DNA of 64,000 nucleotides from Dehalococcoidia bacterium UBA6926 (GTDB lineage: Bacteria; Chloroflexota; Dehalococcoidia; UBA6926): assembly GCA_002450835.1 (NCBI GenBank), contig DKAM01000019.1, forward strand, positions 5,991 through 69,990. Reading direction: 5' to 3'. The notes beneath the pieces were generated by a model. It was not told where the DNA came from. It saw only the letters and a program-made list of their open reading frames with translations, and ran no database searches. A program made the translations under genes and the position numbers. Shown here piece after piece: positions 1-30,473 of the stretch. Position 1 is the stretch's first letter. Each line of letters opens with the position of its first letter.

Positions 1-1184
1 TTGAAGTATTCAGGTCTAAGTCGTTGATTTTGGCTACAGGAGGTATTGGGCAGGTTTATTCTCCAACCACCAATGGCTTAGTGGTAACAGCTGACGGACA
101 GGCACTAGCCTATAAGGCAGGGGCAACCTTGATGGACATGGAGATGGTGCAGCACCATCCGACGACGATGCAGGCGAATGGCGTACTAATCACAGAAGGT
201 GCTCGAGGCGAAGGTGCATATTTACTTAACTCCAAAGGCGAAAGATTCATGGAGAAATATGCTCCTAATATGAAAGAGTTGGCTTCGCGAGATGTAGTCT
301 CTCGGGCTGAGACCATGGAGATCCGTGAAGGTAGAGGAGTCGATGGGTGTGTGTTCTTGGATCTAAGGCATCTAGGTCGTGATCTTATAATGACTAAATT
401 AAGCCAGATATATGAACTATCCCGTGATTATGCTAACACTAATATTTTAGAGGCACCTGTCCCGATTCAACCAGGCCACCATTATATTATGGGTGGCATA
501 AAGACTGATGTTGATGGTCGGACCTGGGATGTTTCAGGACAAAATAGATGGCAAGGTGTTGAAGGATTATTCGCAGCAGGTGAATGTGCGAATGTTAGTG
601 TCCATGGCGGTAACCGACTAGGGGGCAATTCGCTCCTTGATACTATAGTATTTGGTAGACGATCAGGACAGGGATCTACTGACTATGCTAAATCAACAGA
701 TTGGGTAAACATTGATGAAAATTCAGTTATTAGGGGTGCCGAAGATAAAATTAAAGAAATCTTTGCTCGTCCTTCTGGAGGTCTTAGAACTGCAAACCTA
801 AGGTCAGAGATGGGTAGCGCTATGAACGACGGGATCGCGGTATTCCGCAATGAAGAAGGCATGAAGAAGACATTGGAATCTGTTCGCTCGGTGCGCGATA
901 GGTTTCCAAAAATTTCATTAGACAATAAAGGCAAAATTTTTAACACAGATCTTCTTTCCGTATTAGAATTAGAATTTATGTTAGATGTAGCAGAGGTCAT
1001 TGGCATAGGCGCGATTGAACGTAAGGAAAGTAGAGGAGCACACGCTAGAGAAGATTATCCTGATCGAAACGATGAAGAATATCTCAAGCATACAGTGGTT
1101 AATCTAGATGAAAATGGCGAACCAAAACTAAATTATATCCCAGTTACAATGACGCAATGGGAGCCGCAAGTGAGGACATATTAA
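1..1184 (+). CDS. sdhA: Succinate dehydrogenase/fumarate reductase flavoprotein subunit, 5'-truncated at window edge (C-terminal ~390 aa present)
   Basis: Frame is open from nt 3 with no upstream stop. ILATGGIGQVY FAD-binding motif; HYIMGGIKTD and ERKESRGAHAREDYPDRNDEEY are SdhA/FrdA active-site/capping-domain signatures. Immediately followed by sdhB. Confidence 0.9.
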   Translation, partial: EVFRSKSLILATGGIGQVYSPTTNGLVVTADGQALAYKAGATLMDMEMVQHHPTTMQANGVLITEGARGEGAYLLNSKGERFMEKYAPNMKELASRDVVSRAETMEIREGRGVDGCVFLDLRHLGRDLIMTKLSQIYELSRDYANTNILEAPVPIQPGHHYIMGGIKTDVDGRTWDVSGQNRWQGVEGLFAAGECANVSVHGGNRLGGNSLLDTIVFGRRSGQGSTDYAKSTDWVNIDENSVIRGAEDKIKEIFARPSGGLRTANLRSEMGSAMNDGIAVFRNEEGMKKTLESVRSVRDRFPKISLDNKGKIFNTDLLSVLELEFMLDVAEVIGIGAIERKESRGAHAREDYPDRNDEEYLKHTVVNLDENGEPKLNYIPVTMTQWEPQVRTY

Positions 1185-2129
1185 ATGGATGCGACGTTTA
1201 AAGTTCAAAGGTATGATCCCGAGTCCCAAGAAGGGTCTCATTATGAAGAATTTGAAGTAGACCTTCCAGAATATGGAAGTGTTCTAGAGGGACTGTTGGA
1301 CATAAGGGATCATCAGGATGGATCTCTGTCTTTAAGATGTTCTTGCAGAAGTGCGATATGCGGTTCTTGTTCTATGAAGATAAATGGCGAGTCTCGTTTA
1401 GCTTGTAAAGCTATGGTATCGGACATTAAGGAAACTGAAGGAGACATAATAACCGTAGAGCCGATGGGCAATATGCCAGTGATAAAAGATTTGGTTGTTA
1501 ATATGGATATGTTTTGGGAAAAAGTTGAAAAAATTGAACCATATCTCCAGCCAACTGGCCCTGAACCCGAAAAAGAATATCTTGTTTCAAATGATGAAAT
1601 GATGAAACTTGCCGTAGCTATGAATTGCATCATGTGTGGAGCATGTGTATCTGACTGCACCGTTTTAGAGGTAGATAAAACATTTTTGGGTCCGGCAGCT
1701 TTGGCAAAAGCATTCAGATTTGCGGCTGACCCACGTGATGGTGCCCAAGAAGAAAGACTTGAGTCCTATAACGAGCCTACCGGGGTTTGGGATTGCACTA
1801 GATGTTTTATGTGCGTTCAGGCATGTCCCAAGGACGTTGCTCCTATGGAACGTATCATGGATATACGATCCATGGTTGTTGAAAACGAGATAGACAAAAA
1901 AGGAAGAGGGCAGAGGCACATACAAGGGTTTATTGATGGAGTGAAACATAGTGGCAGGCTTGATGAGTTTGGACTTGCTAGAAAGACGTTCGGATTTCCT
2001 ATATGGGCTTTTGAACTAGCTGATTTGGGCATCAGACGAATTCTTCGATTGAGGTTACCTCCTATAATTCATAAAAGTATAAAGTCTGCGAAAAATGTTA
2101 AAAAGATTTTTGAAAACTTGGGGGTTTAG
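1185..2129 (+). CDS. sdhB: Succinate dehydrogenase/fumarate reductase iron-sulfur subunit with ~70-aa basic C-terminal extension
   Basis: Three Cys clusters: CSCRSAICGSCSM (2Fe-2S), CIMCGACVSDC (4Fe-4S), CTRCFMCVQACPK (3Fe-4S). ATG overlaps the sdhA stop (TAAATGG). 314 aa versus the usual ~240-260. Confidence 0.9.
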   Translation: MDATFKVQRYDPESQEGSHYEEFEVDLPEYGSVLEGLLDIRDHQDGSLSLRCSCRSAICGSCSMKINGESRLACKAMVSDIKETEGDIITVEPMGNMPVIKDLVVNMDMFWEKVEKIEPYLQPTGPEPEKEYLVSNDEMMKLAVAMNCIMCGACVSDCTVLEVDKTFLGPAALAKAFRFAADPRDGAQEERLESYNEPTGVWDCTRCFMCVQACPKDVAPMERIMDIRSMVVENEIDKKGRGQRHIQGFIDGVKHSGRLDEFGLARKTFGFPIWAFELADLGIRRILRLRLPPIIHKSIKSAKNVKKIFENLGV

Positions 2130-2132
2130 GGT

Positions 2133-3017
2133 ATGCGTTATGCTTTTTGGCCAGGTTGCGTGTCTAAGGCAGGAACTCCAGAACTGTTTCCAGCTGCAAC
2201 CGCGGTCGCTAATAAGATCGGTATGGATTTAGTAGAGCTTGATCAAGCAAATTGCACAGGAGCTGGTGTTTTAGGTGAGCGTAATGAAGAGCTCGTCGAT
2301 ACCCTAAACGCACGTAATTTTGCGATGGCGGAGCAAATGGGATTAGATACTATTTTGACCATTTGTTCTACTTGTCAGGGAGTTATGAGCTCGGTCAATT
2401 ATAAACTCAGGGAAAAACCCGAATACTTAGCCAAGATTAATGAAAATTTAAAAGAAGAAGGCCTAGAATATAAAGGAACGGTTCGCGTAACCCATATGAT
2501 GTGGGCTGTGGTTGAAGAACTTGGGTTGGATAAACTTTCTGAGATGGTAGTAAATCCATTAACAGGATTACGGATCGCTCCATTTTATGGCTGTTATATT
2601 TTACGACCGCGGTATGTTTTGGGAATGGATGAACATCCGGATAGAACACAATATTTAGAGAAAATTATTGCGGCATTAGGAGCAGAGCCGATCGATTATG
2701 AAGGTAAGCTTCGATGCTGTGGATTCCCAATCATGACGATCAATCAAGATAATGGTCTAAAGATGGTTGCAAACCATACGTTAGAAGCTAAGGATAAAGG
2801 GGCCCATGCCTTAGTTACGCCGTGCCCTTTGTGTCATTTAAATTTGGATGAATTTCAACCAAGAGCAGCAAGCAAAGCAGGAGAATCAATAGATATGCCG
2901 GTACTGCATCTGCCTCAATTAATTGGGTCTGCTTTGGGGTTCAATGTCAAGGAAATGGGATTAAAAAGACATATAATATCCACAGATAATTTTGTTGAAA
3001 TAGCAGGTATCTCATAG
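2133..3017 (+). CDS. CCG-domain Cys-rich subunit (heterodisulfide reductase B-like; SdhE/SdhC of type E succinate:quinone oxidoreductases)
   Basis: Two Cys-rich CCG-like motifs (CSTCQG...; CCGFP...CPLCHLNLD). Lies directly after sdhA-sdhB with a 3-nt gap. No predicted transmembrane helices. Confidence 0.75.
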   Translation: MRYAFWPGCVSKAGTPELFPAATAVANKIGMDLVELDQANCTGAGVLGERNEELVDTLNARNFAMAEQMGLDTILTICSTCQGVMSSVNYKLREKPEYLAKINENLKEEGLEYKGTVRVTHMMWAVVEELGLDKLSEMVVNPLTGLRIAPFYGCYILRPRYVLGMDEHPDRTQYLEKIIAALGAEPIDYEGKLRCCGFPIMTINQDNGLKMVANHTLEAKDKGAHALVTPCPLCHLNLDEFQPRAASKAGESIDMPVLHLPQLIGSALGFNVKEMGLKRHIISTDNFVEIAGIS

Positions 3018-3081
3018 ATAAAATTCATCTCAAATAAAAAATCTTTCAGACCAGTTGGCAGAATTTTATTGGGGTTAAAAT

Positions 3082-3753
3082 ATGAGCGAGCCTTCAGAAA
3101 AAACTGAGCTTAGTTGCTGTACTGACTTCGGCTTGCAGTTTAATGAAAGTTATTTTGAAAATTATTTACGAGAATACCGATCAAAAGGACTTCCAGCGCA
3201 ATCGAAACTGATTTTCGACTATTTGGTTTCCTATGGGATTAAGGATCATTCGATTCTCGAGGTCGGGAGTGGGGCGGGCGCTCTTCATATGAATTTAGTC
3301 AATTCGGGAGCACAGCGGTCTGTTGGGGTTGATGCTTCAGAATGGGCGAATAAAGCGGCTGAAAGACTTAAGAAAGAGATTGATCCATCGCTTAACTCTA
3401 AAACCATTATTGGCGAATTCTCTAAGGGTCAGCAAAATTATGGGAACTTTTCATTGGTGATAATGGACCGATCGATATGTTGCTACCCAGATTTAAACAG
3501 CTTATTAAGGTCTGCCATTTGCCATTCATCAGATCTGATTGCAATATCTATTCCTCGGAAACTTGTTTGGATACGCATTGGGGCAACTTTGATAAACATG
3601 GTGCAGTCATTATTGAGAAAAAAATTCCGAATCTATGTCCACTCTGAAGATCAGGTGGATAAAATTTTTAGCAATAACAGTTTCAGGCGCATTTATGCAG
3701 ATCAAACAAGGATATGGCAAGTTGTTGTTTACCAAATTACCAAAACTCAATAA
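3082..3753 (+). CDS. Class I SAM-dependent methyltransferase (function unknown)
   Basis: Motif I ILEVGSGAGALHMNLV followed by an acidic residue (VGVDAS) typical of the Rossmann SAM-binding fold. Confidence 0.55.
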   Translation: MSEPSEKTELSCCTDFGLQFNESYFENYLREYRSKGLPAQSKLIFDYLVSYGIKDHSILEVGSGAGALHMNLVNSGAQRSVGVDASEWANKAAERLKKEIDPSLNSKTIIGEFSKGQQNYGNFSLVIMDRSICCYPDLNSLLRSAICHSSDLIAISIPRKLVWIRIGATLINMVQSLLRKKFRIYVHSEDQVDKIFSNNSFRRIYADQTRIWQVVVYQITKTQ

Positions 3754-3765
3754 GCCGTGTTTAAC

Positions 3766-4695
3766 CTAAAGATTATCCATTGCATCAATTAATTCTTCGA
3801 CGGCTGCAATTGAATTATCAAACCCTGCCTTTTCTTCGTCTGTAAGCTCAAGCTCGATAATTTTTTCTACTCCCGACTCTCCCAATACAACTGGAACCCC
3901 AATGAATACGTTATTAACACCGTATTCACCTTCTAAATACGCTGCTGCTGGAACAACCCGTTTTTTGTCTAGGATTATTGCGTCTGCCATCTGAAGAACT
4001 GCTGCAGACGGAGCATAGAAAGCAGAACCTGTTTTCAATAAGCTGACGATTTCACCGCCACCTTGTCGAGTACGTGTAACTATTGCATCAATTTTTTCAC
4101 TAGACATCCAGTGGTCCAGAGGTAAACCTCCCACAGTTGCATACCTTACGAGCGGGACCATCGTGTCTCCATGACCTCCTAGCACATATGCTTGTACGTC
4201 TTCTACCGATACATTTGTTTCTTGTGCTATAAAAGTTCTCATTCTTGCGGTATCAAGGACACCTGCCATTCCTAACACTCGTTCTTTGGGGAATCCCGAT
4301 TGTTTGTAAGCTTCGTACACCATTGCATCCAGAGGATTGGATACTATGAGGAGTATAGAGTTTGGCGACTTTTGTACTACCTCTTTCACAACACTTTGCA
4401 TTATTGATTTATTAGTACGAAGTAAGTCATCTCGCGTCATACCGGGTTTTCGAGCTATACCAGCTGTAATTACAACGAGATCCGAATCCTTAGTTTCATC
4501 ATATGTGTTTGTACCAGTCACATTACTGTCATATCCAAGGATCGGTCCACTCTCTGCCAGATCCAAGGCTTTTCCTTGAGGCATACCTTCTACTACGTCT
4601 ACTAATACAATATCAGCATAGTCTCTTTCTGCTATTCTTTGTGCAACGGTCGCACCTACGTTTCCACCGCCAACGACTGTGATCTTTTTTCTCAT
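3766..4695 (-). CDS. mdh: Malate dehydrogenase (LDH-like family)
   Basis: N-terminal [18 protein letters not shown]-binding motif. [14 protein letters not shown] has the substrate-specificity Arg (MDH, not LDH). Catalytic His in [15 protein letters not shown]-aaac Shine-Dalgarno sequence before the ATG. Confidence 0.9.
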
Positions 4696-4785
4696 GTTTC
4701 CCCCAATGATTCATTATAAAATATTCTTTAAAATTGATACAGTTCTATAATTGAATTAATTCTACGGTTAGATATAATAGCGCAA

Positions 4786-6684
4786 TTACTTACTGGGACC
4801 AACTACTACTAAAGCATCTCCTTTAGCGACTCTGTCACCACTATTTCTGGGTAGCTCTAGTATAATGCCGTCTGCGGATGCCGGCAGCATATTTTGCATT
4901 TTCATAGCTTCTATGACAACCAAAGTATCGCCTTTTTTAACTTTGTCACCGATTTTAACTTCGTATCTTATAACCAACCCTGGCATTGGAGCTGTTATGA
5001 GGTAGCCTCCTTCAGGTGCAGACAAACCAGATTTAGTTACTTCCGTGGATGACATCGCTGGTGGTGGCTGCAAAGGCCGCCCTCCTTGGTTCGGATCTCT
5101 AAAGCTTCTAATTCTAGGGCCAGTTGTGTTGGAAGACTCCACTATTATGTCAAATTCCTTTTCACCTACGTAAACTTTGTATGACCTAGAGTTCGCTCCT
5201 GGACCAACCGCCGGTTTGTTTACATCCTTTGTATTTGGTTCCTCTTGTTTTTCCGTAGAATAGGATTCTTTTTTAGGAGGGTCATCGATTCCGTGCTTCC
5301 AACGAAGGAACTGAAGTCCGGTTACAGGATATAGCGCATAAATTAGAACATCTCCTTCATCCGAGGAAATGTCGATGATATCCTCTTTTGCTTTGGCAAG
5401 TTCTGGTTCGAGGATATCAGCCGGTTTTTCTTTGGTAGGAGTTTCACCGCGTTCGTATCCCTTTAAAACCTTTTTTACCACCCGTTTATTCATAGGCAAG
5501 GGTGGTTGCCCGTATAGCCCAAATACGTAGTCTTTGATTTGCTGGCTTACCATCTCGTATCTACCGAACAAAACATTTTGAACTGCTTGAATACCTATAA
5601 TCTGGCTCGAGGGTGTTACTAACGGTGGATATCCAAGGTCTTTTCTAGTTTTCGGTAGTTCCTTTAGTACATCGGGGAGTTTGTCTAAAGCGTCAGCCTC
5701 AGCGAGCTGTGAAAGTAGGTTTGAGGTCATTCCTCCGGGAACTTGATGGGTTAGAACACTGGTATCTATTGTACTGAATTTTGATGGAGCCATAAAATCT
5801 GAGTAATGTTCTTGTAAGATGGTTTCTAATTTATCGCTGGCATCAATTATTCTATTTAGGTTAAAACCGGTGCTTCTTTCTGTTTTGTCTAAAGTCACAA
5901 TCAGAGGCTCCAATGGGGGATGCGCAGTTCTGAGTGATAATGGTGCTAAATCTGTATCGACAATATCTATTCCTGCTTCTATTGCTTTTAATTGGGTCAT
6001 TTGGCCCATACCGGATGTGTAGTGGGCATGTAATTCTATGGGTATAGAAACTGCATCTTTCAAAGCACTAACTAACTCGTATGCATCGTACGGAGATAAA
6101 AGAGCTGCCATATCTTTAATACACAAAGAATCGGCACCCATCTTCTCAATAGTTTTAGCTTTTTCGATAAAATAGTCTAAATTGAATACTGGTCCTCCCA
6201 TCTGCTGTTCGGTTACCGAGTAGCAGATAGTTCCTTGAACATGCTTTCCAGCTTCCTTTATAGCATCAAATGAAGATTCAAAATTCCGATGATCGTTTAA
6301 CGCATCGAAAACACGAAATATATCTATTCCTGACTTGGCAGAATATCTAATAAACTCTTTAACTACGTCGTCGGGGTAATTCCTGTAACCCACGAGATTT
6401 TGCCCTCTTAGTAGCATCATAAAAGGAGTTTTTGGTGCTACCTTTTTTAGGTCCTTTATACGCTCCCATGGATCTTCATTTAAATATCTCGTCATTACGT
6501 CAAAGGTAGCTCCACCCCATACTTCGAGAGCGGCGAATCCAACTTTATCAAGCATCCCTATTATTTCTTTTATGTGATTCGTCCGCATCCTTGTTGCCAT
6601 AATTGATTGATGCCCATCACGAAGGGTCACATCTGTGACTTGGACTTTAGAATCAGAGTTACGAAAAATATCTTTTGGATCCAT
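4786..6684 (-). CDS. Carboxyltransferase 5S-type subunit fused to a C-terminal biotinyl (BCCP) domain (PycB / OadA / transcarboxylase-5S-like)
   Basis: N-terminal VTDVTLRDGHQS TIM-barrel carboxyltransferase motif. C-terminal IEAMKMQN biotin-attachment motif preceded by a Pro/Ala linker. Confidence 0.85.
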   Translation of the reverse strand: MDPKDIFRNSDSKVQVTDVTLRDGHQSIMATRMRTNHIKEIIGMLDKVGFAALEVWGGATFDVMTRYLNEDPWERIKDLKKVAPKTPFMMLLRGQNLVGYRNYPDDVVKEFIRYSAKSGIDIFRVFDALNDHRNFESSFDAIKEAGKHVQGTICYSVTEQQMGGPVFNLDYFIEKAKTIEKMGADSLCIKDMAALLSPYDAYELVSALKDAVSIPIELHAHYTSGMGQMTQLKAIEAGIDIVDTDLAPLSLRTAHPPLEPLIVTLDKTERSTGFNLNRIIDASDKLETILQEHYSDFMAPSKFSTIDTSVLTHQVPGGMTSNLLSQLAEADALDKLPDVLKELPKTRKDLGYPPLVTPSSQIIGIQAVQNVLFGRYEMVSQQIKDYVFGLYGQPPLPMNKRVVKKVLKGYERGETPTKEKPADILEPELAKAKEDIIDISSDEGDVLIYALYPVTGLQFLRWKHGIDDPPKKESYSTEKQEEPNTKDVNKPAVGPGANSRSYKVYVGEKEFDIIVESSNTTGPRIRSFRDPNQGGRPLQPPPAMSSTEVTKSGLSAPEGGYLITAPMPGLVIRYEVKIGDKVKKGDTLVVIEAMKMQNMLPASADGIILELPRNSGDRVAKGDALVVVGPSK

Positions 6685-6923
6685 TAGTACGATCTCCGAT
6701 AGTTGTTAGTGAGTGCTATGCTTTTTTGGTGGTGGTGTTTGTATTTAGAGTCAGTGGGTATTCTATTGGACATTTGAGACAATCGGCCTCTTAACCTCCA
6801 TTTGTTAGTTGGCTCGCTCAGATTTCTCAATCTTATCTCTTCTTCATAATCATTTATCACACTTAGAATTGCTGCGCTAAGTTCTTCATCTATCGAATCT
6901 ATATCCAGATTAGTACTATTCAT
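6684..6923 (-). CDS. Small ORF, possible acyl-CoA carboxylase epsilon-like subunit
   Basis: 79 aa between the 12S and 5S genes. N-terminus EELSAAILSVINDYEEE resembles the EELAALVAVL-type motif of AccE/PccE epsilon subunits. Stop overlaps the 5S ATG. Weak evidence. Confidence 0.35.
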   Translation of the reverse strand: MNSTNLDIDSIDEELSAAILSVINDYEEEIRLRNLSEPTNKWRLRGRLSQMSNRIPTDSKYKHHHQKSIALTNNYRRSY

Positions 6924-6924
6924 T

Positions 6925-8478
6925 TTAGAGAGGTATATTCCCGTGTTTCTTTGAAGGAACTGAATCAGTTTTATTTTCTAACATTGATAGCGCGCTGACT
7001 ATCATTTTCCTTGTATCTGAGGGGTCAATGACATCCTCTATGTAACCCTTGCTAGCTGTAACATATGGGTTTGCGAATTGTTCTTGATATTCTTGAGTAG
7101 CAAGTTTTCTTTCCATTTCTGAATTTTCTGATTCTCTAATTCGATTTCTAAAAATAATATTAGCGGCTCCTTCAGCTCCCATAACAGCCATTTCTGCGCC
7201 TGGCCAAGCATAATTTATGTCTCCTCTGAGCATCTGGGAGGACATTACAATTAATGCTCCACCATACGCTTTTCTTGTCACAATTCCTACCTTTGGCACG
7301 GTTGCTTCAGTATATGCATACAATAGTTTGGCTCCATGCGTTATGATGCCGTTATGTTCTTGATCTACGCCTGGTAAGTAGCCGGGAACATCAGTTAGGG
7401 TAACTAGTGGAATATTAAAGCAATCACAAAATCTAACGAATCGAGCGGCTTTTATGGCAGCTTTGATGTCTAAAGCTCCGGACATGACCATAGGTTGTTG
7501 ACCTATTATGCCTGTTGTCTTCCCGTTAAATCTGCCAAACCCCACTACAATGTTTTGGGCCCATGATTGGTGGACTTCCAAAAAGCCCCCACCAATATCC
7601 ACTATCGAATCAATGAAATCTCTCATGTCATAGGGTTGGTTTGGGTCTTCTGGAACTAAGTCCATCAATTCTGGGGTTGGTCTACTAGGATTATCTGCAG
7701 TATCTGCAAACGTAGAATCCTCCAAGTTATTCGATGGAAGAAAGCTTAGCAGATCCCTGGCAAGGTCTAAGCTTTCTTCCTCACCATCAGTGCCGAAATG
7801 TGCTACTCCACTCATTGTTGTGTGAGCATCGGCACCACCTAATTGCTCGTGTGTTACTTCCTCACCGGTAACGGTTTTTATTACGTCTGGACCGGTTATA
7901 TACATTTGGCCTACGCCTTTTTCCATTATAATGAAATCAGTTAGAGCAGGGCTGTAAACGGCTGCGCCAGCAGCTGGACCCATTATGATACTAATTTGAG
8001 GAATCACTCCAGAGGATAAGACATTCCTTTGAAAGATTTGCCCTACACCCCAGAGGCTGTCAACACCTTCTTGAATCCTAGCCCCGCCTGAATCCAAGAT
8101 ACCTATTATTGGGGACCCAGTTTTTAGTGCTAGGTCTTGGACCTTCATAGTTTTTTTTGAAGCAACCAATGACATGGTTCCCCCTAAAACAGTGAAGTCA
8201 AAGGCGTATACAAAAACTGTTCTACCATCAATTTTCCCATACCCTGTTACTACTGAATCACCTGGGACTTTTCTGTCTGCTATTCCAAATTCATTGACAT
8301 CATGCGTTACAAAAGGATCTAGTTCAATAAAAGTTCCAGGATCTAAAAGGCGGTTGATTCTCTCATGCGCAGTCATTTTGCCCCGTGCATGTTGTCTTTC
8401 TATTGCCGCTTCGCCCCCACCTTGAGACGAGGCAGATCGACGTTTGGATAATTCATCAAGTTTATCTTGCATAGTCAT
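6925..8478 (-). CDS. pccB: Propionyl-CoA carboxylase beta chain / methylmalonyl-CoA carboxyltransferase 12S subunit
   Basis: Canonical N-terminus (DKLDEL...GGG...IERQHARGKMTAHERI..LLDPGTF.E) and two crotonase-like carboxyltransferase halves. Confidence 0.9.
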   Translation of the reverse strand: MTMQDKLDELSKRRSASSQGGGEAAIERQHARGKMTAHERINRLLDPGTFIELDPFVTHDVNEFGIADRKVPGDSVVTGYGKIDGRTVFVYAFDFTVLGGTMSLVASKKTMKVQDLALKTGSPIIGILDSGGARIQEGVDSLWGVGQIFQRNVLSSGVIPQISIIMGPAAGAAVYSPALTDFIIMEKGVGQMYITGPDVIKTVTGEEVTHEQLGGADAHTTMSGVAHFGTDGEEESLDLARDLLSFLPSNNLEDSTFADTADNPSRPTPELMDLVPEDPNQPYDMRDFIDSIVDIGGGFLEVHQSWAQNIVVGFGRFNGKTTGIIGQQPMVMSGALDIKAAIKAARFVRFCDCFNIPLVTLTDVPGYLPGVDQEHNGIITHGAKLLYAYTEATVPKVGIVTRKAYGGALIVMSSQMLRGDINYAWPGAEMAVMGAEGAANIIFRNRIRESENSEMERKLATQEYQEQFANPYVTASKGYIEDVIDPSDTRKMIVSALSMLENKTDSVPSKKHGNIPL

Positions 8479-8635
8479 AAGTGGCGCTTTAAATTTCTAT
8501 ATTAATCTTGAAATACATTTATCATAGGATGGTAGCAGAGCCGGTTAGAAGGTGACAAGCCTATAATAGGCATGAGTATGTATAAAAATTATTGATAAAG
8601 ATGCTGGATTCAATATGATTATTGGTCTAACTTAG

Positions 8636-9511
8636 ATGATAATGAATAGTATGATGCGATTTGGAAAAAGAACATACGTTATGGGCATAATTAACATGTC
8701 TCCTGAATCATTTTCGGGAGATGGGTTCATAGACCATGAATCTGCGATCAGTATGGCGAAAACATATATTGATCAAGGAGCAGATATTATTGATGTTGGA
8801 GGGCAGTCTACGCGGCCCCGATACTCAGCTGAAGTGGAATCCCTGGTGTCTGGTGTAGATAAACCAGGTGATTCGTATGAGATTGTTTCAGAAGAGATAG
8901 AGATAGAGCGCGTAGTTGCAGTGGTCGAAGAAGTGAGCAAGCTGGGTGTCCCAGTTTCAATAGATACTTTTAAACCTAATGTCGCAAAGGCTGCGATACT
9001 AGCTGGGGCAACCATAATTAACGATGTAACTGGATTGAAATTTGACATTCAAATGGCTCACATAGCGTCTGAATACTCCAGTTACATCGTATTAATGCAT
9101 AATCAAGCAACGACAAAGTATGAGAATCTGATAGAAAACGTTGCAGATTCTTTAAATGAAAGTGTTTCGAAAGCGATTTCTGCAGGAGTTAGAAGGGATA
9201 AAATTATTGTTGACCCAGGTTTTGGTTTTGGTAAGACCGTTACGCATAATTTAGATTTACTTAATAATCTCGATGTTCTCAAATCGAAACTAGGTTATCC
9301 GATGCTATTAGGTACCTCGAGGAAATCAACCATAGGCAAAGTCTTAAACTTACCAGAAGGTCAGCGAGTCGAAGGAACAGCTGCTACCATGGCAATTGCT
9401 ATATCACAAGGGGTAGATATAATTCGCGTTCACGATGTTGAATATATGGTAAGGGTCGCAAAGATGTCAGATGCAATAGTCAGAGACTCTAGCGGAAATG
9501 AAATAAATTAA
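8636..9511 (+). CDS. folP: Dihydropteroate synthase
   Basis: VMGIINMSPESFSGDG and DIIDVGGQSTRP pterin-binding motifs. Exact start ambiguous (several in-frame Met at 8636-8654). Confidence 0.85.
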   Translation: MIMNSMMRFGKRTYVMGIINMSPESFSGDGFIDHESAISMAKTYIDQGADIIDVGGQSTRPRYSAEVESLVSGVDKPGDSYEIVSEEIEIERVVAVVEEVSKLGVPVSIDTFKPNVAKAAILAGATIINDVTGLKFDIQMAHIASEYSSYIVLMHNQATTKYENLIENVADSLNESVSKAISAGVRRDKIIVDPGFGFGKTVTHNLDLLNNLDVLKSKLGYPMLLGTSRKSTIGKVLNLPEGQRVEGTAATMAIAISQGVDIIRVHDVEYMVRVAKMSDAIVRDSSGNEIN

Positions 9512-9579
9512 TATGTTAATAGCATTTCCAATTTGGCTTCAAATCCCAAGTAAATTACAGCGTCATTAAGAGGTGATAT

Positions 9580-10095
9580 ATGAATAATGCGTGGGTAGCG
9601 CTTTCATTGGGAACTAATTTGGGGCCCAGAGAGAGAAACTTGAAAATGGCGACTGACGAACTCAAAAATTTGCTAGAGAATGTCCGGTGTTCTCCTGTGT
9701 ATGAAACTGTTCCAGTTGGGTACGCTGACCAACCTTTGTTTTTGAATGCTGCCCTTGTTGGATATACGAAGTGGTCTGCCGATGAGATATTAGATCGAAT
9801 TTTGGATATTGAGTTAAAAGGAGGTCGGACGAGAAGTATCGTCAATGGGCCTCGCACTATAGACATAGATTTACTTTTGTATGGGTATGAAATGAGGGGG
9901 CTTTTTGTTTCGCAAAGTTCGAGACTAACTGTACCTCATGCACGGTTGCATGAAAGAGCTTTTGTCCTGCAACCTTTGAATGAATTGATACCTGAACAAA
10001 TCCATCCAGTATTAAATCAAACTATTGGAGAATTGGCTGAAAGAGTTGGATCCAAGGGAGTAGTTCAGGTTAGCGATATTTTAAATGCTAAATAG
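9580..10095 (+). CDS. folK: 2-amino-4-hydroxy-6-hydroxymethyldihydropteridine pyrophosphokinase
   Basis: ALSLGTNLG ... PRTIDIDLLLYG HPPK motifs. AAGAGGTGA Shine-Dalgarno sequence 7 nt upstream. Confidence 0.85.
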   Translation: MNNAWVALSLGTNLGPRERNLKMATDELKNLLENVRCSPVYETVPVGYADQPLFLNAALVGYTKWSADEILDRILDIELKGGRTRSIVNGPRTIDIDLLLYGYEMRGLFVSQSSRLTVPHARLHERAFVLQPLNELIPEQIHPVLNQTIGELAERVGSKGVVQVSDILNAK

Positions 10096-10102
10096 GGTAA
10101 GT

Positions 10103-10825
10103 TCATTTATTTCCATCCAATAAATGGATCCAACTAGAAAACACCGATTTTCCAACCTGATTGCTTTCATTTAAATATTGGTGAGTTAATTCCAGCAACT
10201 TGGTACTTGAAATTCCTGCATCCAATAAATCTTGCTTAAATGTGTTCGCCATTTCTTCTATCTGAGTTAAATCTGCTTCTAAATGAAAAACTAATCCCCA
10301 CACATTTGTTCTCCAAATAAATCCTTCTACTTTCGTATTTTTCGATGATGCAATTTGGGATGCTTGAGGAGGTAATTCAAATATATCTTTGTGCCAATGC
10401 AAAGGTTGGATAGTGATTTTAATATCAGCTTGATTTATGTAATTATTTACGAACAGTTGTGACAGTTCTACTGGCTCCCACCCTATGCGCATTTTTGGTC
10501 CGGAACTAACCTTTGAGCCCAAAATTTCCGCCAGAAGTTGGCTGCCCAGGCAGATTCCTAGAATGGGTATATTCTCATCTATTGCTTTCTTTATAAAGTC
10601 TTTTTCTTTAGAGAGATATGGAAATTCCTTTTCCTGGTATGCACTTTGGGGGCCTCCAAGTATAATTAATCCAGAAAACATGTTTACGTCTAGTGGTAAA
10701 TCTTCTCCGTAGAACGGTTTTATGTAAGAATAATCAATACCGTAGTTTAAAAGTTGAACGCCTATGATACCAAGAGATTCTTTATCAGTGTGTTGGATCA
10801 CCAATACTTTTTTTGATTCTTTCAC
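10103..10825 (-). CDS. Class I glutamine amidotransferase-like protein (GuaA-N/COG0518-like)
   Basis: ILGICLGSQLLAEILG nucleophile-elbow Cys. Catalytic His region near the C-terminus. Confidence 0.7.
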   Translation of the reverse strand: MKESKKVLVIQHTDKESLGIIGVQLLNYGIDYSYIKPFYGEDLPLDVNMFSGLIILGGPQSAYQEKEFPYLSKEKDFIKKAIDENIPILGICLGSQLLAEILGSKVSSGPKMRIGWEPVELSQLFVNNYINQADIKITIQPLHWHKDIFELPPQASQIASSKNTKVEGFIWRTNVWGLVFHLEADLTQIEEMANTFKQDLLDAGISSTKLLELTHQYLNESNQVGKSVFSSWIHLLDGNK

Positions 10826-10870
10826 CCGGCCTCCGAAACATGATCAAATACTTTGGGAAATAAATATATA

Positions 10871-12715
10871 ATGAATGACCATAATAATGGAACCGACCTA
10901 ATAAGAAATTTCTCTATCATCGCTCATATTGATCATGGAAAATCTACTCTTGCGGATAGGCTTATGGAAAGCACGAGCACTATCGATCAGAGATCGATGC
11001 AAGATCAACTCTTGGATCAGTTAGAACTAGAAAGAGAGAGAGGAATTACAATCAAAGCTCAGGCTGTAAAGATGATGTATACAGCTAGGAACGGTTTAAC
11101 ATATCAATTTAACCTTATTGATACTCCAGGACACGTAGATTTTAGCTATGAAGTATCTCGCAGTTTGGCTGCTTGTGAGGGAGCTATTCTGGTGGTTGAT
11201 GCATCTCAAGGAATCCAAGCTCAAACGTTAGCGAATACTTTTCTTGCAAATGAGTTAGGGCTAAATATAGTTCCGGTGATCAACAAAGTAGATCTTCCAA
11301 GTGCGAGACCCGTGGAAGTTACAGAAGAACTAGGTGAAACCCTAGCGATACCTTCGGAAGAAGTATTGTTGGCATCTGCTAAAGAAGGGATTGGCATTGA
11401 TGATATTTTGGAATCTATAATTGATAAAGTGAATCCCCCTAATCAAAATGAGAGTAGACCACTCAGGGCTTTAGTGTTTGATTCAAAATATGACCAATAT
11501 AAGGGCGTTATAGCGTACGTGAGAGTATTTGATGGCTCAATTCCGGATTCCACTGATTTGAGATTAATGTCTAATGACAAGTTAATCCAACCCCTTGAAA
11601 TTGGTGTATTTTCTCCGTGGCTGCTTCCGGTAGACGAAGGTTTATCTTGTGGCGAGGTTGGATATATCGCAACTGGCTTAAAAGATGTAAGGGAATGCAG
11701 AGTGGGAGACACAATTACTCTTATGGAGGACGGAGCATCTGATGCTCTACCAGGGTATCGGCCTTTGCAATCAATGATTTTCGCCGGTCTTTTCCCGTCA
11801 GAAGGATCAAGATACGATGATTTAAGAGATGCTCTAGAGAAATTGCAGCTTAATGACGCAGCATTATCTTACGAGCCAGAAAACAGTTCTGCACTAGGTT
11901 TTGGTTTCCGTTGTGGGTTTCTGGGTCTATTACATATGGATATTGTGAGAGAACGTCTTGAACGAGAATATGATATTGAAATAATTGTAACCGCACCCAG
12001 TGTAGGTTATGAGATTGAAAAAACTGATGGAAGCTTTGATATTATTCATAACCCAGCTGATTTCCCAAGTTCTAACTTGATCCAATCTGCGAGAGAGCCT
12101 TGGATAAAAGCAACGATTATAACTCCTAATGCTATGGTCGGACCGGTAATGGAACTAATGTCTGAACGTAGGGCAGTTTATAAGACAATGGAATATATAC
12201 AAACCTCATCAAGTGGGGATCAAAACCAGGCTAGGGTACTGCTTCAATACGAGATGCCATTATCAGAAATGCTGATCGATTTTTTCAACCAGCTTAAATC
12301 CCGAACTCAGGGTTACGCTTCTCTTGATTATGAATTTATCGAAAATCGAGAATCTGATTTGGTGAAGTTACAGATATTAGTTAATGAAGAGCCAGTAGAT
12401 TCATTAAGCCTCATATGCCATAAGGATAACTCTTATTATAGGGGTAAGGCTCTAGTGACACGATTGAAAGAGACGATACCCCGCCAGATGTTTGATATAC
12501 CGATACAGGCTGCTATAGGTGGGAAAATTATCTCCAGAGAAACGGTACGTGCGATAAGAAAGAATGTTCTTGCAAAATGCTATGGTGGGGACGTTACGAG
12601 GAAACGGAAATTGCTAGAAAAGCAAGCAGAAGGTAAAAAGAGGATGCGAAGAGTTGGGCGTGTAGAAGTACCTCAAGAGGCATTTTTATCATTGCTTCAA
12701 TTAGATGAGGACTGA
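10871..12715 (+). CDS. lepA: Translation elongation factor 4
   Basis: [22 protein letters not shown]1 motif, [13 protein letters not shown]. Conserved LepA C-terminal domain. The ORF track starts at TTG 10853; the ATG at 10871 is preferred. Confidence 0.9.
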
Positions 12716-15205: not shown

Positions 15206-17614
15206 CTACTTGATTGCACCTAGTTTTGTGAAGTCCTCGATTTCTTTTTGTGATAACCCCAGTATTGTTCGAAATACATAATCGTTATCATCACCGATTA
15301 AGGGCGTTCTACCATTAGCCCATGATGCAGATATTGATGGTATTCCAGGTAACCCTTGATGTGATAACTTGCCCCATGGAGCCTGGTCGTTATCGACTAC
15401 ATGGGCTCTGGATCTCATTTGTTGGTTGTTCAGCAGGTGTTCGCCTTTTAGCATAACTCCTGCAGGCACTCCTAAAGATTGAAGCAGATGCATCAATGGA
15501 TGAGGGTAATGAGAAGAAGACCAATTAGCGATATTTGAATCTAGCTCCTTTCTATTAGCTCTCCTATTGCTAATAGAGTTAAATTTTTTATCACTAACCC
15601 ACTTTGGTTCGCCCAGCGCAGTTTTCAATCCTTGCCACTCTTCTTCGGTTTCCACAGCTATGATTACCCATTCATCTTCTCCAAGACAAGGGTACGCACC
15701 ATAGGGAGAATACTGCTGACCAAGTATTTCGTTATACCCTTGTGCATCCCATTCTTTTGTATTTACTGTGCTATCTAATATAGAAGGTCCCATAAGTGCG
15801 CCTTGAGCCTCCAGTTGTGCTAATTCAATGAATTGTCCTTCTCCTGTTAAGTCGCGGAACTCTATGGCGGCCAGTGAGGATAGTGCGACAAGGGCTGCTC
15901 CTAAATAATCTGGTATGACTATTTTACCGTGTGATTCCATAGGTGATTCTTCGTGGCCCCACATATGTATCATTCCGGTGTATGCGAGTAGCTGCGTTCC
16001 CCATGTGACCCAGTCCGTAAGTGGTCCATCGAGCCCCATACCTGGTGCAGTTATTTGTATTAATCCAGGGTTAATGGCTCTTGTTTTGTCCCTCCCAAAT
16101 CCTAACCGATCAATAACTCTAGGAGAAAAATTATCGATGAAAATATCGCTCTGTTTTAGTAGTGCTTCCAATAATAGTTTTCCATCACTATTTCTCAAAT
16201 CGAATGTCGCGCTCAGCTTATTTCGATTCATATCTGGGTAAAGGACACCTTCTCTAGTTGCGACTAGTAATTCAGATTCAAGTTTTATTACCTCGGCTCC
16301 ATAAAACCCCATAAACATAGTACCTATTGGACCTGCAAAAAATCTCGAGAGATCGGCTACGCGGATACCCTTTAACATCGGGCTATCTTTTGTTTCTAAT
16401 TTTTCTTTGGGGGCTGCATTTGTCTTCTTTCTCGATCCTGTACTTAATTCATCTAGGATTTCATCCTGATGTTGTCCTAGAGTTGGAGAAGACCGCCAAA
16501 CTTTCATCGGGGTTTTTTCCATTTTAAAGGGAAATCCCGGAGCCTCATATTCACCTATAATGGGATGATCGATTTTTTGGACCCATTTCCTCTGTTTTAA
16601 GTGATTGCTTTGCATAAAATCCCCAGGTGTGTTCACTGGGGCGCAAGGGAGACCTCGCTTCTGACATTCATTTACAAAATCTTCGGACGTAAATTGGGCG
16701 ACGAAATCTTGCATGGCCATACTAATTACATCCGCGTTTTCTTCGCGGTAGTCCGGGTTATCCCATTCAACCCCTGATAACAGTGGATCTTCCATCCATT
16801 CCCTTGTAATTTTATGCCAATGAGGAAGAATAAAAATTGACATATATATATATTTTCCATCTTTACAGCGAAAAATATTGGAAGCGCCTGCTTGCCCTTT
16901 TACCCCATGGCGCTTTAGTACTTCATTTCTTCCGGAGTACCGTGCAATAGCGCTCATAGCCATGTAGGAGATACTTTCTGTTAACGCTTGATCAATTTTT
17001 TGGCCTTGTCCTGAGCGCCTGGCATGACGTATGCCAGCAAGTGTCAAATATGATGAGTGTACTCCAGCTAATTGATAGGTTATATGATTCGGAGTTACTA
17101 CAGGGGGCATCAGATCATCGCCGTGAACTGACATAAACCCGGATAGTGCCTCCACAATCGCGTGGGACCCTTTATAGGCTGCGTAAGGGCCAGTTTCTCC
17201 GAATGGTGTTATGGATGTTGTAACTAAGCGTTTATTTCTTCCTAAAAGGATTTCTTGGCCTAAGCCAAGTTCTTCTAGATACCCTGGATTATTTGATTCA
17301 ATAAGAGCATCTGCAGTTTCTATAAGCTGCAAAAATGTTTCCTTATCTTTAGGCGAGCCCACTATATCGAGGGCAATAGATCTCTTGTTTAGATTTGCAT
17401 TGATAAAACTTAGGCTTCGCTCAGGGTCTTCTATATTATTGGCAAAAGGTGGCAGTAATCTATTGGGGTCTCCTTTAAGCGGTTCAATTTTAATGATATC
17501 TGCGCCTAAATCGCCGAGCCATCGGGTTGCATAGGATGAAGGGATGCCGCCATATTCTAAGATCCGTAAGTGACCCAGCGATGCCCTATCAGGTGTATGT
17601 ATATTTTCTGGCAT
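15206..17614 (-). CDS. Fused tandem di-domain family III CoA-transferase (CaiB/BaiF family), paralog 1
   Basis: 802 aa. Residues ~1-400 and ~410-802 each contain a complete CaiB-like domain (HLRILEYGGIPSSYATRWLGDLGADIIKIE and GIRVADLSRFFAGPIGTMFMGFYGAEVIKLE Rossmann N-termini). ~70% identical to the adjacent paralog. Confidence 0.8.
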   Translation of the reverse strand: MPENIHTPDRASLGHLRILEYGGIPSSYATRWLGDLGADIIKIEPLKGDPNRLLPPFANNIEDPERSLSFINANLNKRSIALDIVGSPKDKETFLQLIETADALIESNNPGYLEELGLGQEILLGRNKRLVTTSITPFGETGPYAAYKGSHAIVEALSGFMSVHGDDLMPPVVTPNHITYQLAGVHSSYLTLAGIRHARRSGQGQKIDQALTESISYMAMSAIARYSGRNEVLKRHGVKGQAGASNIFRCKDGKYIYMSIFILPHWHKITREWMEDPLLSGVEWDNPDYREENADVISMAMQDFVAQFTSEDFVNECQKRGLPCAPVNTPGDFMQSNHLKQRKWVQKIDHPIIGEYEAPGFPFKMEKTPMKVWRSSPTLGQHQDEILDELSTGSRKKTNAAPKEKLETKDSPMLKGIRVADLSRFFAGPIGTMFMGFYGAEVIKLESELLVATREGVLYPDMNRNKLSATFDLRNSDGKLLLEALLKQSDIFIDNFSPRVIDRLGFGRDKTRAINPGLIQITAPGMGLDGPLTDWVTWGTQLLAYTGMIHMWGHEESPMESHGKIVIPDYLGAALVALSSLAAIEFRDLTGEGQFIELAQLEAQGALMGPSILDSTVNTKEWDAQGYNEILGQQYSPYGAYPCLGEDEWVIIAVETEEEWQGLKTALGEPKWVSDKKFNSISNRRANRKELDSNIANWSSSHYPHPLMHLLQSLGVPAGVMLKGEHLLNNQQMRSRAHVVDNDQAPWGKLSHQGLPGIPSISASWANGRTPLIGDDNDYVFRTILGLSQKEIEDFTKLGAIK

Positions 17615-17674
17615 TTGTCACCTCCGTCTCATATATGAGTAGCTCTAGTTTGAAAAAAACAGAGCAAATACAAT

Positions 17675-25485: not shown

Positions 25486-26310
25486 CTAAATTTCTCCAGC
25501 ATGGTTCGCGTTTTCATCTGTTAATAATACGAGAGTTCCGACAAAATCCAAAGGGTGTAAGGCCGTTAAAACTGGATCTCCGTTGTCGACAATAACTCGA
25601 ATATTCTTGTCTTCGGCTCTTTTAGCAATTACTGAGCTATCATCATTCTCTATAACTATGGCGTGCAACCCACTGCCAAAAATCTTTATTGCTTTTGCGA
25701 CTGGACCCGTTGAATTTAGTTGTTCTGCAAATTCAACTTCACTATTTTTTGTATCGAGCCATCCAGTATCCATTTCATAACTTTCAGATACGGCGGTTCT
25801 TTTTATTGGCATTTTAAACAAATCGGACCAGAGTTTTAGGTCTTTTTTCATATTCTCAGTTCTTAGAGTCACATGATGTAGAGAGATATCGATATTAGGA
25901 TCAAGAGCGGTTTCGGGCTCCTCAATAATACTGAGCCTTGTACCGCCTGTAGAATCAGGGTCCATCAAAATTGATTTCTTACCGTAAATCTCATTTTGGC
26001 GAATAGATGATTTGGCCCCTGAGGATTCAATGTGCTTTTGAAGAGAAGCAAGGTTATCTGTTGCCATACATATGTCGTAAAGGCCTTCTCCTCTGGTTGA
26101 AAGAAGCACCGCTGCGTCAGATTCCCCCGGCGATGGTGCTATCAGTTGGATGTTAGCATTTTTTGTGGGAATTGAGATCGTTTGTCCGAGATCAATGGTT
26201 TTTAAGCTATTTTCTTTAGGAGAAATACCGAGTACTGATTCGATTTTTGAAGCGGCAGCATCAATATCATTTACCAGTATTGAAACGTGTTTAATTTTGT
26301 TTATTGACAT
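25486..26310 (-). CDS. Two-domain VOC family protein, methylmalonyl-CoA epimerase-like (paralog A)
   Basis: 274 aa, two complete VOC domains (IKHVSILVNDID... and LHHVTLRTEN...). Located between the mutase catalytic and B12 genes. Confidence 0.6.
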   Translation of the reverse strand: MSINKIKHVSILVNDIDAAASKIESVLGISPKENSLKTIDLGQTISIPTKNANIQLIAPSPGESDAAVLLSTRGEGLYDICMATDNLASLQKHIESSGAKSSIRQNEIYGKKSILMDPDSTGGTRLSIIEEPETALDPNIDISLHHVTLRTENMKKDLKLWSDLFKMPIKRTAVSESYEMDTGWLDTKNSEVEFAEQLNSTGPVAKAIKIFGSGLHAIVIENDDSSVIAKRAEDKNIRVIVDNGDPVLTALHPLDFVGTLVLLTDENANHAGEI

Positions 26311-27119: not shown

Positions 27120-27158
27120 CTATCGATAACCTGCCTTATTTGTTTTACTGCTCACAAC

Positions 27159-30411: not shown

Positions 30412-30433
30412 GATACGATTTATGCAAAACTTT

Positions 30434-30441: not shown

Positions 30442-30473
30442 CAATGGAACGGTATAAACATTGGGAGGAAAAA

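Follow-up and report, generated by a model that had tools for sequence, protein, structure and literature searches.

A type E-like succinate dehydrogenase locus in a marine Dehalococcoidia bacterium, with a conserved basic C-terminal extension of SdhB

Type E succinate:quinone oxidoreductases (SQRs) have been defined as a class, with SdhE proposed to be the monotopic membrane anchor (PMC2754724). The enzymes of the Sulfolobales (Sulfolobus and Acidianus SdhABEF, formerly SdhABCD) have no transmembrane (TM) anchor, carry an extra cysteine in SdhB and possess an SdhE with two CCG domains (PMC2754724). The extra cysteine is part of a CxxCxxCxxxCP motif and is associated with a second 4Fe-4S cluster that replaces the 3Fe-4S cluster (PMC2754724; PMC2680327). 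Three-subunit SdhABE enzymes without SdhF are known from Wolinella, Campylobacter, Synechocystis and Nitrospina (PMC2680327; PMC3578206). The 8-methylmenaquinol:fumarate reductase (MFR; SdhABE or MfrABE) of Wolinella succinogenes and Campylobacter jejuni is exported by the Tat system via a signal on SdhA and acts as a fumarate reductase (PMC2680327). In Synechocystis (SdhA, SdhB1/B2 and Slr0201) and in SQR-2 of N. gracilis, bacterial SdhA and SdhB are combined with an HdrB-like subunit that replaces the TM anchor (bioRxiv 10.1101/2021.09.27.461999; PMC3578206). Finally, in TfrB of thiol:fumarate reductase (NF004898) the SdhB-like and CCG parts are fused in a chain of about 490 residues, and Hamann et al. 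have proposed that type E SDH evolved from this enzyme (PMC2754724).

The window, by which we mean the whole stretch of 64,000 nucleotides that was analysed, opens inside sdhA, the first gene of a single tight sdhA-sdhB-sdhE operon. Its features are as follows.

1..1184, + strand: sdhA (flavoprotein subunit), last 393 codons, assigned by family matches; the 5' part is cut by the window edge.
1185..1883, + strand: sdhB core, residues 1-233, a 2Fe-2S domain and a two-cluster ferredoxin domain (Fer2_3, 2.6e-32; Fer4_8, 2.7e-12); aligns with every solved SdhB to about residue 233.
1794..1829, + strand: C204-T-R-C207-F-M-C210-V-Q-A-C214-P215 of SdhB, the CxxCxxCxxxCP extra-cysteine S3 motif, read from the sequence.
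1884..1994, + strand: proximal SdhB tail, residues 234-270, with the motif G242-x-R-H245...F249...S-G257-x-L-D-E261...G270, supported by conservation and an AF2 model.
1995..2126, + strand: distal SdhB tail, residues 271-314, a moderately hydrophobic stretch (FPIWAFELADLGI) followed by a Pro-Pro segment of basic character and, at the C-terminus, an amphipathic helix; supported by charge, conservation, hydrophobic moment (muH) and AF2.
2133..3017, + strand: sdhE, HdrB-like with two CCG domains and without a TM helix, assigned by Pfam CCG, NCBIfam and HdrB structure matches.
2253..2261, + strand: C41-T42-G43 of SdhE, where the first CCG motif has become CTG, aligned with the CC of solved HdrB.

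The sdhA frame is open from base 3 to base 1184, where the window edge truncates its 5' end. The complete gene, seen in contigs that match the window at 100% identity, starts 526 nt upstream of the window and encodes 569 residues; the N-terminus reads MPQHQVLIVGGG, and no Tat signal or twin-arginine extension is seen on it. SdhA carries the covalent-FAD histidine in the motif RSHSAAAQGG and matches FAD_binding_2 (4e-50) and Succ_DH_flav_C (1.5e-43). The sdhB gene (1185-2129) encodes 314 residues that match TIGR00384 (3e-74), and sdhE, with a product of 294 residues, starts 3 nt past the sdhB stop codon. The domain matches of all three subunits are far beyond chance. Our ORF calls place the three genes where the initial annotation had placed them, and the tail sequence that it quoted is identical to ours letter by letter. 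Around the operon, scans for promoters and terminators did no better than on shuffled sequence. The subunit masses of 62.5, 35.3 and 32.4 kDa (SdhA, SdhB and SdhE) are nearly equal to those of the Sulfolobus enzyme, which are reportedly 63.1, 36.5 and 32.1 kDa.

Our search for anchor genes and SdhF covered the window plus some 10 kb of flanking sequence. No sdhC or sdhD gene lies within approximately 7 kb upstream in the identical contigs or downstream in the window; the genes 5' of sdhA in these contigs encode a NUDIX protein, a GNAT protein, NAD kinase, glyoxalases and NuoLMN. There is no convincing TM helix in SdhA, SdhB or SdhE in 19-residue Kyte-Doolittle windows, those of 1.6 or above being confined to the SdhA core and the Cys-cluster motif of SdhB, with a maximum of 1.08 in SdhE. 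The initial annotation had held that an SdhC/D anchor is absent, and had proposed both the upstream check and the TM prediction; the two results bear it out. The sdhA-sdhB-CCG gene order is kept in nearly all of 85 related loci, 65 of which have no ORF with at least two TM segments within 2.5 kb, and no conserved small gene resembling SdhF follows sdhE here or in the loci of relatives. TM-rich ORFs adjoining the operon in four relatives were considered as anchors and rejected: three appear by eye to be Lgt, a K+ channel and a PAP2-like protein, the fourth is an unknown protein of 109 residues, and none is conserved. Genes of the methylmalonyl-CoA pathway also neighbour the operon.

Cysteines 204, 207, 210 and 214 of SdhB are invariant in 119 homologues, and to judge from this motif the S3 centre is probably a second 4Fe-4S cluster instead of a 3Fe-4S cluster. 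Together with the lack of an SdhC/D anchor near the operon and the two-CCG SdhE encoded with sdhAB, the extra cysteine supports the earlier description of a type E-like SdhA-SdhB-SdhE enzyme. The locus has no SdhF, a criterion that applies to archaeal enzymes only; SdhF is not required for membership of the class because accepted bacterial members are also without it (PMC2680327). The likeness to the Sulfolobales SQR, drawn from published descriptions, extends to the missing TM anchor, the extra cysteine and the two-CCG SdhE. Unlike that enzyme, ours has no SdhF gene beside the operon, a bacterial host and a first CCG motif that reads CTG. As in MFR, three genes, sdhABE, occur without SdhF, and SdhE resembles its MFR counterpart (1.4e-57), but SdhA carries no signal and all three MFR equivalogs (NF042982/NF042952/NF042965) are missed, with scores of 327, 160 and 195 against cut-offs of 1100, 600 and 500. 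The Synechocystis subunits are encoded at loci with unlinked names (slr1233, sll1625/sll0823 and slr0201), in contrast to the one tight operon seen here.

The best model for SdhB, and the only one that spans residues 1-311, is NF009227 (PRK12577, a long SdhB/FrdB equivalog), with 296.3 bits against a cut-off of 349. Broader models are passed (NF004616, 260 against 228; TIGR00384, 249 against 88). Since the best equivalogs, namely NF009227, HdrB (216 against 345) and MFR SdhE, all score below their cut-offs, this lineage represents a distinct branch of the class.

SdhE matches Pfam CCG in two stretches (5e-29) and the NCBIfam HdrB model TIGR03288 (5.8e-64), and its residues 1-289 align end to end with solved HdrB structures (3e-55). 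Nine of the ten canonical cysteines are present (residues 9, 41, 78, 81, 154, 195, 196, 231 and 234). The two CCG motifs initially assigned to this protein are therefore there as domains, except that the first reads C-T-G; Thr42 is kept in 114 of 115 homologues and at all 82 of 82 Chloroflexota loci. With Cys42 replaced by threonine, SdhE does not have both of the five-cysteine noncubane sites of the TIGR03288 family. As the N-terminal CCG domain is one of five cysteines short, its metal centre may differ from that of characterized SdhE and HdrB. The relationship to HdrBC of heterodisulfide reductase extends to SdhB, the ferredoxin domain of which is HdrC-like. The enzyme differs from HdrBC in having an SdhA/SdhB fumarate-succinate module as partner, in the loss of one HdrB-type cysteine ligand and in lacking HdrA.

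We consider it probable that the operon encodes a cytoplasm-facing three-subunit type E SQR of a marine Dehalococcoidia (Chloroflexota) bacterium, with an SdhB tail that folds into a conserved helical subdomain. SdhA would oxidize succinate at its covalently bound FAD, and electrons would run via the 2Fe-2S, 4Fe-4S and second 4Fe-4S clusters of SdhB to quinone. The site of quinone reduction would be formed together with SdhE, which is HdrB-like, has no TM helix and would keep the enzyme monotopically on the membrane surface. The acceptor, the catalytic direction, the mode of membrane attachment and the contacts of the tail are what we infer; the gene content, the lack of anchor genes, the cluster motifs and the conservation, distribution and physicochemistry of the tail are observed. 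The tail begins where SdhB normally meets its anchor. The conserved motif in its proximal part most likely binds SdhE, and the basic amphipathic distal part would most likely lie at the interface of SdhE, membrane and quinone; in all, the tail would most likely form an interface with SdhE and/or the membrane surface.

Alignments to solved SdhB structures all end near residue 233, so that the extension amounts to 81 residues. The initial annotation was right that it is extra, although at about 80 residues it is longer than the 60-70 first estimated. It is present in 119 of the 119 closest homologues (312-332 residues, 52-100% identity), in the 85 Chloroflexota loci and in Rokubacteria-like, Deltaproteobacteria-like, Bacillota MfrB-like and archaeal relatives, always within sdhA-sdhB-CCG triads. 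Such triads also surround five of five distant SdhB proteins with a tail, among them one archaeal protein. Searched against 1.84 billion representatives, a profile of the tail matched 220 clusters; where these are full-length, the tail sits at the C-terminus. The NCBIfam SdhB models of the CCG-partnered class (NF009227 and MFR SdhB) include the region, and the tail of one homologue (P0120) matches positions 231-315 of the 320 in the MFR model (1e-6); models of the TM-anchored SdhB classes span just 235-255 positions. Some profile matches of 44-135 residues resembled stand-alone, SdhF-like tail proteins. Many begin at internal SdhB methionines (such as MDRIMALR) or within the Cys motif that precedes the tail, and chimeric calls occur among them (at least one, P0252); these therefore look like truncated gene calls.

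Gly242, His245, Gly257 and Glu261 are invariant in the 119 sequences; in 33 diverse representatives Gly257 and Glu261 remain so and Gly242 and His245 are conserved to at least 90%. The entropy of the proximal tail, 1.16 bits, compares with 1.18 bits for the 2Fe-2S domain, i.e. the two are equally conserved. In the distal tail Pro292 is invariant among the 119 homologues and Pro293, His296 and Lys297 reach at least 90%. A tail-only profile found nothing significant in Pfam and, among PDB sequences, a chance match only (E = 0.48). The tail thus belongs to no described domain and has no sequence link to HdrC. Judged from sequence, the long basic tail is a conserved hallmark of CCG-partnered SdhB and no peculiarity of this genome.

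The tail has a net charge of +9 and a pI of 10.7, against -20 for the SdhB core, and the distal part alone has a charge of +6 and a pI of 11; the family means are +6.2 for the tail and -11.7 for the core. Its helices reach a muH of 0.59-0.75, compared with 0.14-0.54 elsewhere in SdhB, and the maximum for the protein, 0.75, falls on helix 302-312. These values confirm the strongly basic, amphipathic character first noted and make a role at the membrane surface plausible. A Heliquest-type lipid-binding discriminant D, which is mostly charge-driven and computed in windows that cross a Pro-Pro break, rises to 2.39 in the distal tail and exceeds 1.34 in 94% of family tails versus 36% of cores. AF2 predicts structured helices with an overall pLDDT of 76-89 (84-89 for proximal helices 241-256 and 261-269; 85-89 for the distal part).

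It is possible, if on balance doubtful, that the tail never reaches the membrane and is purely a protein-protein docking arm around the CCG subunit. Its strict co-occurrence with a CCG partner across distant lineages, and its absence from models of anchor-type SdhB, would fit such a role. The C-terminal segment of HdrC wraps around and holds HdrB, and the SdhB ferredoxin domain matches HdrC (7bkb_C, 1.2e-6). In Foldseek the alignment of the SdhB model takes in the complete HdrC chain (200 columns, 189 residues), with a TM score of just 0.47. Profile coordinates of HdrC, GlpC, GlcF and TfrB likewise show a segment of 40-80 residues past the ferredoxin domain. However, the tail has no sequence similarity to the C-terminal region of HdrC or to the linkers of TfrB and GlpC. 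Homology to these segments was considered and rejected: hhalign of the SdhB family with E. coli GlpC covers the ferredoxin domain only (144-228 to 5-80), and the NCBIfam alignments to TfrB and HdrC end at about residue 235-239. The likeness past the ferredoxin domain is an architectural analogy only. Moreover, a strongly conserved positive charge opposite a partner of mildly acidic character would fit the binding of lipid head groups equally well.

We regard as improbable the proposal of the initial annotation that the tail is an unusual adaptation which stands in for a missing SdhF and is itself the amphipathic monotopic membrane anchor. The tail is basic in an otherwise acidic complex (net charges of -20 for SdhA, -20 for the SdhB core and -9 for SdhE), no other part of SdhB reaches the hydrophobic moments of its helices, the D values favour it and nothing like SdhF follows sdhE here or in relatives. 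Nevertheless, it is tied neither to this genome nor to SdhF loss, being universal in CCG-partnered SdhB including the MFR family; since three-subunit SdhABE enzymes without SdhF were already known, the idea has no support as a novelty. AF2 indicates a multi-helix subdomain rather than a free peptide, the D score mainly reflects charge and the literature assigns anchoring to SdhE (PMC2754724). The molecular masses point the same way. SdhB of Sulfolobus acidocaldarius is reportedly about 36.5 kDa despite the SdhF/SdhD of that enzyme, against 35.3 kDa here.

Returning to the three-subunit SQR, we would suggest, speculatively, that the conserved C-terminal subdomain of SdhB, and not SdhE alone, might be the missing piece of type E membrane seating, the proximal motif clamping the CCG subunit and the distal basic Pro-Pro/amphipathic part offering a lipid- and quinone-facing surface. 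If so, the picture of SdhE as the monotopic anchor would be incomplete for all type E complex II. The sdhABE genes are already named by existing annotation pipelines and the enzyme type is known; the extension of about 80 residues is a universal, well conserved signature of CCG-partnered complex II. We know of no structure of any type E enzyme. The literature that we searched offers no functional description of the extension and no solved structure includes it, so that residues 234-314 present a defined target for work on type E membrane binding and quinone reduction.

An enzyme that is no quinone reductase at all, whether a soluble thiol:fumarate reductase-like protein or a periplasmic MFR-type fumarate reductase, is very improbable: HdrB is the characterized protein that SdhE most strongly resembles, the TfrB model weakly matches SdhB and SdhE alike (150 and 42 bits; cut-off 385) and the adjacent methylmalonyl-CoA pathway could in principle run reductively, but SdhA has no Tat signal, the MFR scores are far under their cut-offs, and a stop codon separates the genes of SdhB and SdhE, in contrast to the fused TfrB. 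Disulfide chemistry of the HdrB type is also made less likely by the loss, from the N-terminal CCG site, of a cysteine that aligns with the CC pair in solved HdrB. The surroundings are those of the TCA cycle and respiration, with mdh adjacent, the complex I genes nuoLMN upstream and fumarase in relatives, and point to aerobic TCA use. Taken by itself, the locus indicates that marine Dehalococcoidia/SAR202-like bacteria run the TCA cycle with a non-classical, anchor-less complex II.

Three co-directional, tightly packed genes occupy the window's first 3 kb.

Open base 3 to 1184 (past the left window edge), + strand: sdhA, 5'-truncated, C-terminal two-thirds of a succinate dehydrogenase/fumarate reductase flavoprotein
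1185-2129, + strand: sdhB, iron-sulfur subunit
2133-3017, + strand: sdhE, the CCG subunit gene
2253-2261, + strand: first CCG motif of SdhE, which reads C41-T42-G43

The sdhA reading frame matches the domain and family models FAD_binding_2 (4e-50), Succ_DH_flav_C (1.5e-43) and TIGR01812 (8e-144). sdhB begins at the base right after the sdhA stop and matches Fer2_3 (2.6e-32) and TIGR00384 (3e-74). sdhE starts three bases past the sdhB stop; its product matches Pfam CCG (5e-29) in two stretches, can be aligned to solved HdrB structures from end to end (3e-55, residues 1-289) and matches the NCBIfam model of the 'anchor' SdhE of 8-methylmenaquinol:fumarate reductase (MFR) at 1.4e-57. Kyte-Doolittle windows gave no credible transmembrane segment in the SdhA part, SdhB or SdhE; values of at least 1.6 are confined to the SdhB cysteine motif and to SdhA's buried core, and the SdhE maximum is 1.08. 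On these matches, and with no such segment in the three proteins, the sdhA-sdhB-CCG arrangement proposed in the initial annotation is correct in every material respect. At 2127-2135 sdhB and sdhE share one reading frame, separated by just TAG and the codon GGT, and read-through would join SdhB and SdhE in a TfrB-like fusion. An 83%-identical relative (locus L002) does not keep the phase, so the shared frame is probably a coincidence.

The region upstream was read from three public contigs that match window bases 1-11000, two at 100% and the third at 99.3% identity. The complete sdhA encodes 569 amino acids, its start lying 526 nt ahead of the window's first base, and on its 5' side are NUDIX, GNAT and NAD kinase genes, two glyoxalase-family genes and nuoLMN; neither sdhC nor sdhD is found upstream of sdhA in the three contigs, so the description of sdhAB as lacking a membrane anchor stands. 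The SdhA N-terminus enters the Rossmann fold straight away (MPQHQVLIVGGG), and the RSHSAAAQGG motif carries the histidine that binds FAD covalently. Since the full-length gene from the matching contigs specifies no twin-arginine signal at this N-terminus, the enzyme is predicted to face the cytoplasm, unlike the Wolinella MFR (PMC2680327). In one Chloroflexota relative a very hydrophobic 109-residue ORF of unknown family (L047:7950-8279) lies 51 bp 3' of the CCG gene; no counterpart was seen in the other loci, and it could represent a lineage-specific extra membrane subunit.

SdhB has the cysteine motifs CIMCGACVSDC and then C204-TR-C207-FM-C210-VQA-C214-P, whose cysteines are invariant among 119 homologues. 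Such an extra-cysteine pattern has been read as a second 4Fe-4S cluster replacing the 3Fe-4S cluster, the signature of type E (PMC2754724; PMC2680327). The extra SdhB cysteine, the lack of an anchor and the CCG subunit complete the set of defining type E features that can be judged from sequence, and the assignment is supported. The small second 'anchor' subunit of archaeal type E enzymes, SdhF, has no gene next to the operon here; it is also absent from the accepted bacterial members of Wolinella, Campylobacter, Synechocystis and Nitrospina (PMC2680327; PMC3578206; bioRxiv 10.1101/2021.09.27.461999). The named homologues all come from Chloroflexi, Dehalococcoidia or SAR202 metagenome-assembled genomes. 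Because the best equivalog models all score under their curated cut-offs (the long SdhB/FrdB model NF009227, 296/349; HdrB, 216/345; MFR models far below), this lineage is a distinct Chloroflexota branch within type E. The enzyme is a new member of an already known class.

In the alignment to solved HdrB, Thr42 of SdhE stands where the CC pair has its second cysteine; this threonine is present in 114 of 115 homologues and in all 82 of 82 Chloroflexota loci. The same motif is CNG in one Rokubacteria-like relative, while CCG is kept in the delta-like and Bacillota Mfr-like relatives and in a further relative, P0405. CTG is a small lineage-specific variant, and suggests an altered metal centre in the N-terminal CCG domain of this lineage. 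For Sulfolobus SdhE, a zinc site has been assigned to the N-terminal CCG domain and the 4Fe-4S cluster to the C-terminal one (Hamann et al.; PMC2754724). A four-cysteine N-terminal site fits a structural centre and argues against HdrB-type disulfide chemistry.

We then consider the C-terminal tail of SdhB (residues 234-314). All solved SdhB structures, which represent types A-D and F and among which is 9lay from Chloroflexus, align only up to about residue 233, and in relation to these the tail is extra, as the initial annotation held. Within its own class it is not: the 119 closest homologues (52-100% identity) are all 312-332 residues long with 99-100% query coverage, and NF009227 (330 positions) covers residues 1-311. 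An equally long sdhB is present in the 85 Chloroflexota loci analysed (some 80 come from species-representative genomes), and the gene order is nearly always sdhA-sdhB-CCG. A tail-only profile found 220 clusters among 1.84 billion representatives, the full-length matches bearing the tail C-terminally; they include proteins of Rokubacteria and Deltaproteobacteria and a Bacillota protein annotated MfrB, and all match the MFR SdhB model. The tail of one homologue, P0120, by itself matches positions 231-315/320 of that model at 1e-6. All five distant tail-bearing genes with retrievable context, one from an archaeal contig, lie in sdhA-sdhB-CCG triads, and NCBIfam SdhB models for the transmembrane-anchor classes have just 235-255 positions. 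Taken together, these lengths, models, matches and contexts mark the tail as a hallmark of SdhB that partners a CCG subunit; though real and conserved, it is ordinary within this class. Many short 'proteins' that match the profile look like truncated gene calls rather than stand-alone tail subunits. P0340 (1590 residues) has 11 separate stretches that match profile positions 13-47 (the GARHxEAFxxSVxHSGRLDE region) and shows no similarity to SdhB beyond them, which might reflect a repeat protein or an artefact of composition. On an archaeal contig with such a tail-bearing triad a PAS-UbiA prenyltransferase gene (L099:2055-3326) is directly upstream of sdhA and may indicate a link to quinone or haem prenylation.

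Conservation of the proximal tail (234-270) equals that of the 2Fe-2S domain (entropy 1.16 versus 1.18 bits). Gly242, His245, Gly257 and Glu261 are invariant in the 119 sequences; in 33 very diverse representatives Gly257 and Glu261 still are, with Gly242 and His245 at 90% or above. The distal part (271-314) is more variable, retaining a moderately hydrophobic stretch, a basic amphipathic end, an invariant Pro292, and Pro293, His296 and Lys297 at 90% or above. The basic, amphipathic character first described is borne out: the net charge is +9 (family mean +6.2), against -20 for the SdhB core (family mean -11.7), -20 for SdhA and -9 for SdhE, and the highest hydrophobic moments within SdhB are in the tail helices. 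By a Heliquest-type lipid-binding discriminant, 94% of family tails score above 1.34 and just 36% of cores do, though charge dominates the score. AlphaFold2, with the 119 sequences, places helices at 241-256, 261-269, 273-287 and 302-312 with pLDDT 76-89, which indicates a folded subdomain and not a floppy peptide.

In solved complex II structures SdhB ends on the side where it contacts the anchor and the quinone site, so an extension that begins there must be placed at the junction of SdhB, SdhE and membrane. Given that the tail is conserved, positively charged and strictly co-occurring with the CCG subunit, it most likely has a two-part role, in which the proximal motif would dock SdhE and the distal part would face lipid and quinone; the proposed membrane role is plausible. 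That the tail stands in for the missing SdhF is weakened, though not refuted. It occurs in MFR-type enzymes, which have no SdhF, and this agrees with the idea; it presumably also occurs in Sulfolobales SdhB, although the enzyme there has SdhF. Janssen et al. in 1997 are said to have found a mass of 36.5 kDa for that SdhB, in an SdhF-containing enzyme; the window SdhB is 35.3 kDa. As a novelty of this locus the substitution fails, the tail being ordinary among CCG-partnered SdhB, MFR-type included. We found no sequence similarity of the tail to the HdrC C-terminal region or to the TfrB or GlpC linkers; in Foldseek the SdhB model aligns along the entire HdrC, though with a TM score of just 0.47. 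A 2023 review states that a class E structure had yet to be reported (PMC10238741), and the 2026 PDB copies searched contain none. The tail offers a defined target for work on the membrane attachment of type E complex II.

Further features of the window are as follows.

3082-3753, same strand as sdhE: class I SAM-dependent methyltransferase, 223 aa, weak BchM/UbiG-like matches
3766-8478, 15206-20080, 25486-28844 and 39487-40950: block resembling a methylmalonyl-CoA/C4-dicarboxylate pathway, with the sdh operon within it
30444-32708: molybdopterin-binding subunit, xanthine dehydrogenase/aldehyde oxidase/CO dehydrogenase family

The neighbouring genes (malate dehydrogenase, a biotin-dependent carboxyltransferase pair, CoA-transferases, VOC-family proteins, methylmalonyl-CoA mutase and malic enzyme), the complex I genes upstream and a fumarase adjoining the operon in one relative point to a TCA-cycle succinate:quinone reductase supplied by propionyl/methylmalonyl-CoA metabolism, for which we infer the quinone and the catalytic direction. 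Between sdhE and the methyltransferase gene 64 bp 3' of it there is no terminator-like site; the two genes are neighbours in only 8 of 85 loci, all closest relatives, which makes a functional link, for example through quinone methylation, doubtful. Within the pathway block, mdh is accompanied by a 632-residue HMGL-like, PYC_OADA and biotinyl protein, a 79-residue ORF and a carboxyltransferase; no biotin carboxylase lies beside them, a transcarboxylase- or decarboxylase-like arrangement. The block also encodes two tandem proteins of 801/802 residues with two CoA-transferase III domains each, two VOC/glyoxalase proteins (methylmalonyl-CoA epimerase family), the mutase and malic enzyme. The start codon of the molybdopterin-subunit gene shares one base with the end of an opposite-strand MFS transporter gene (28927-30444).
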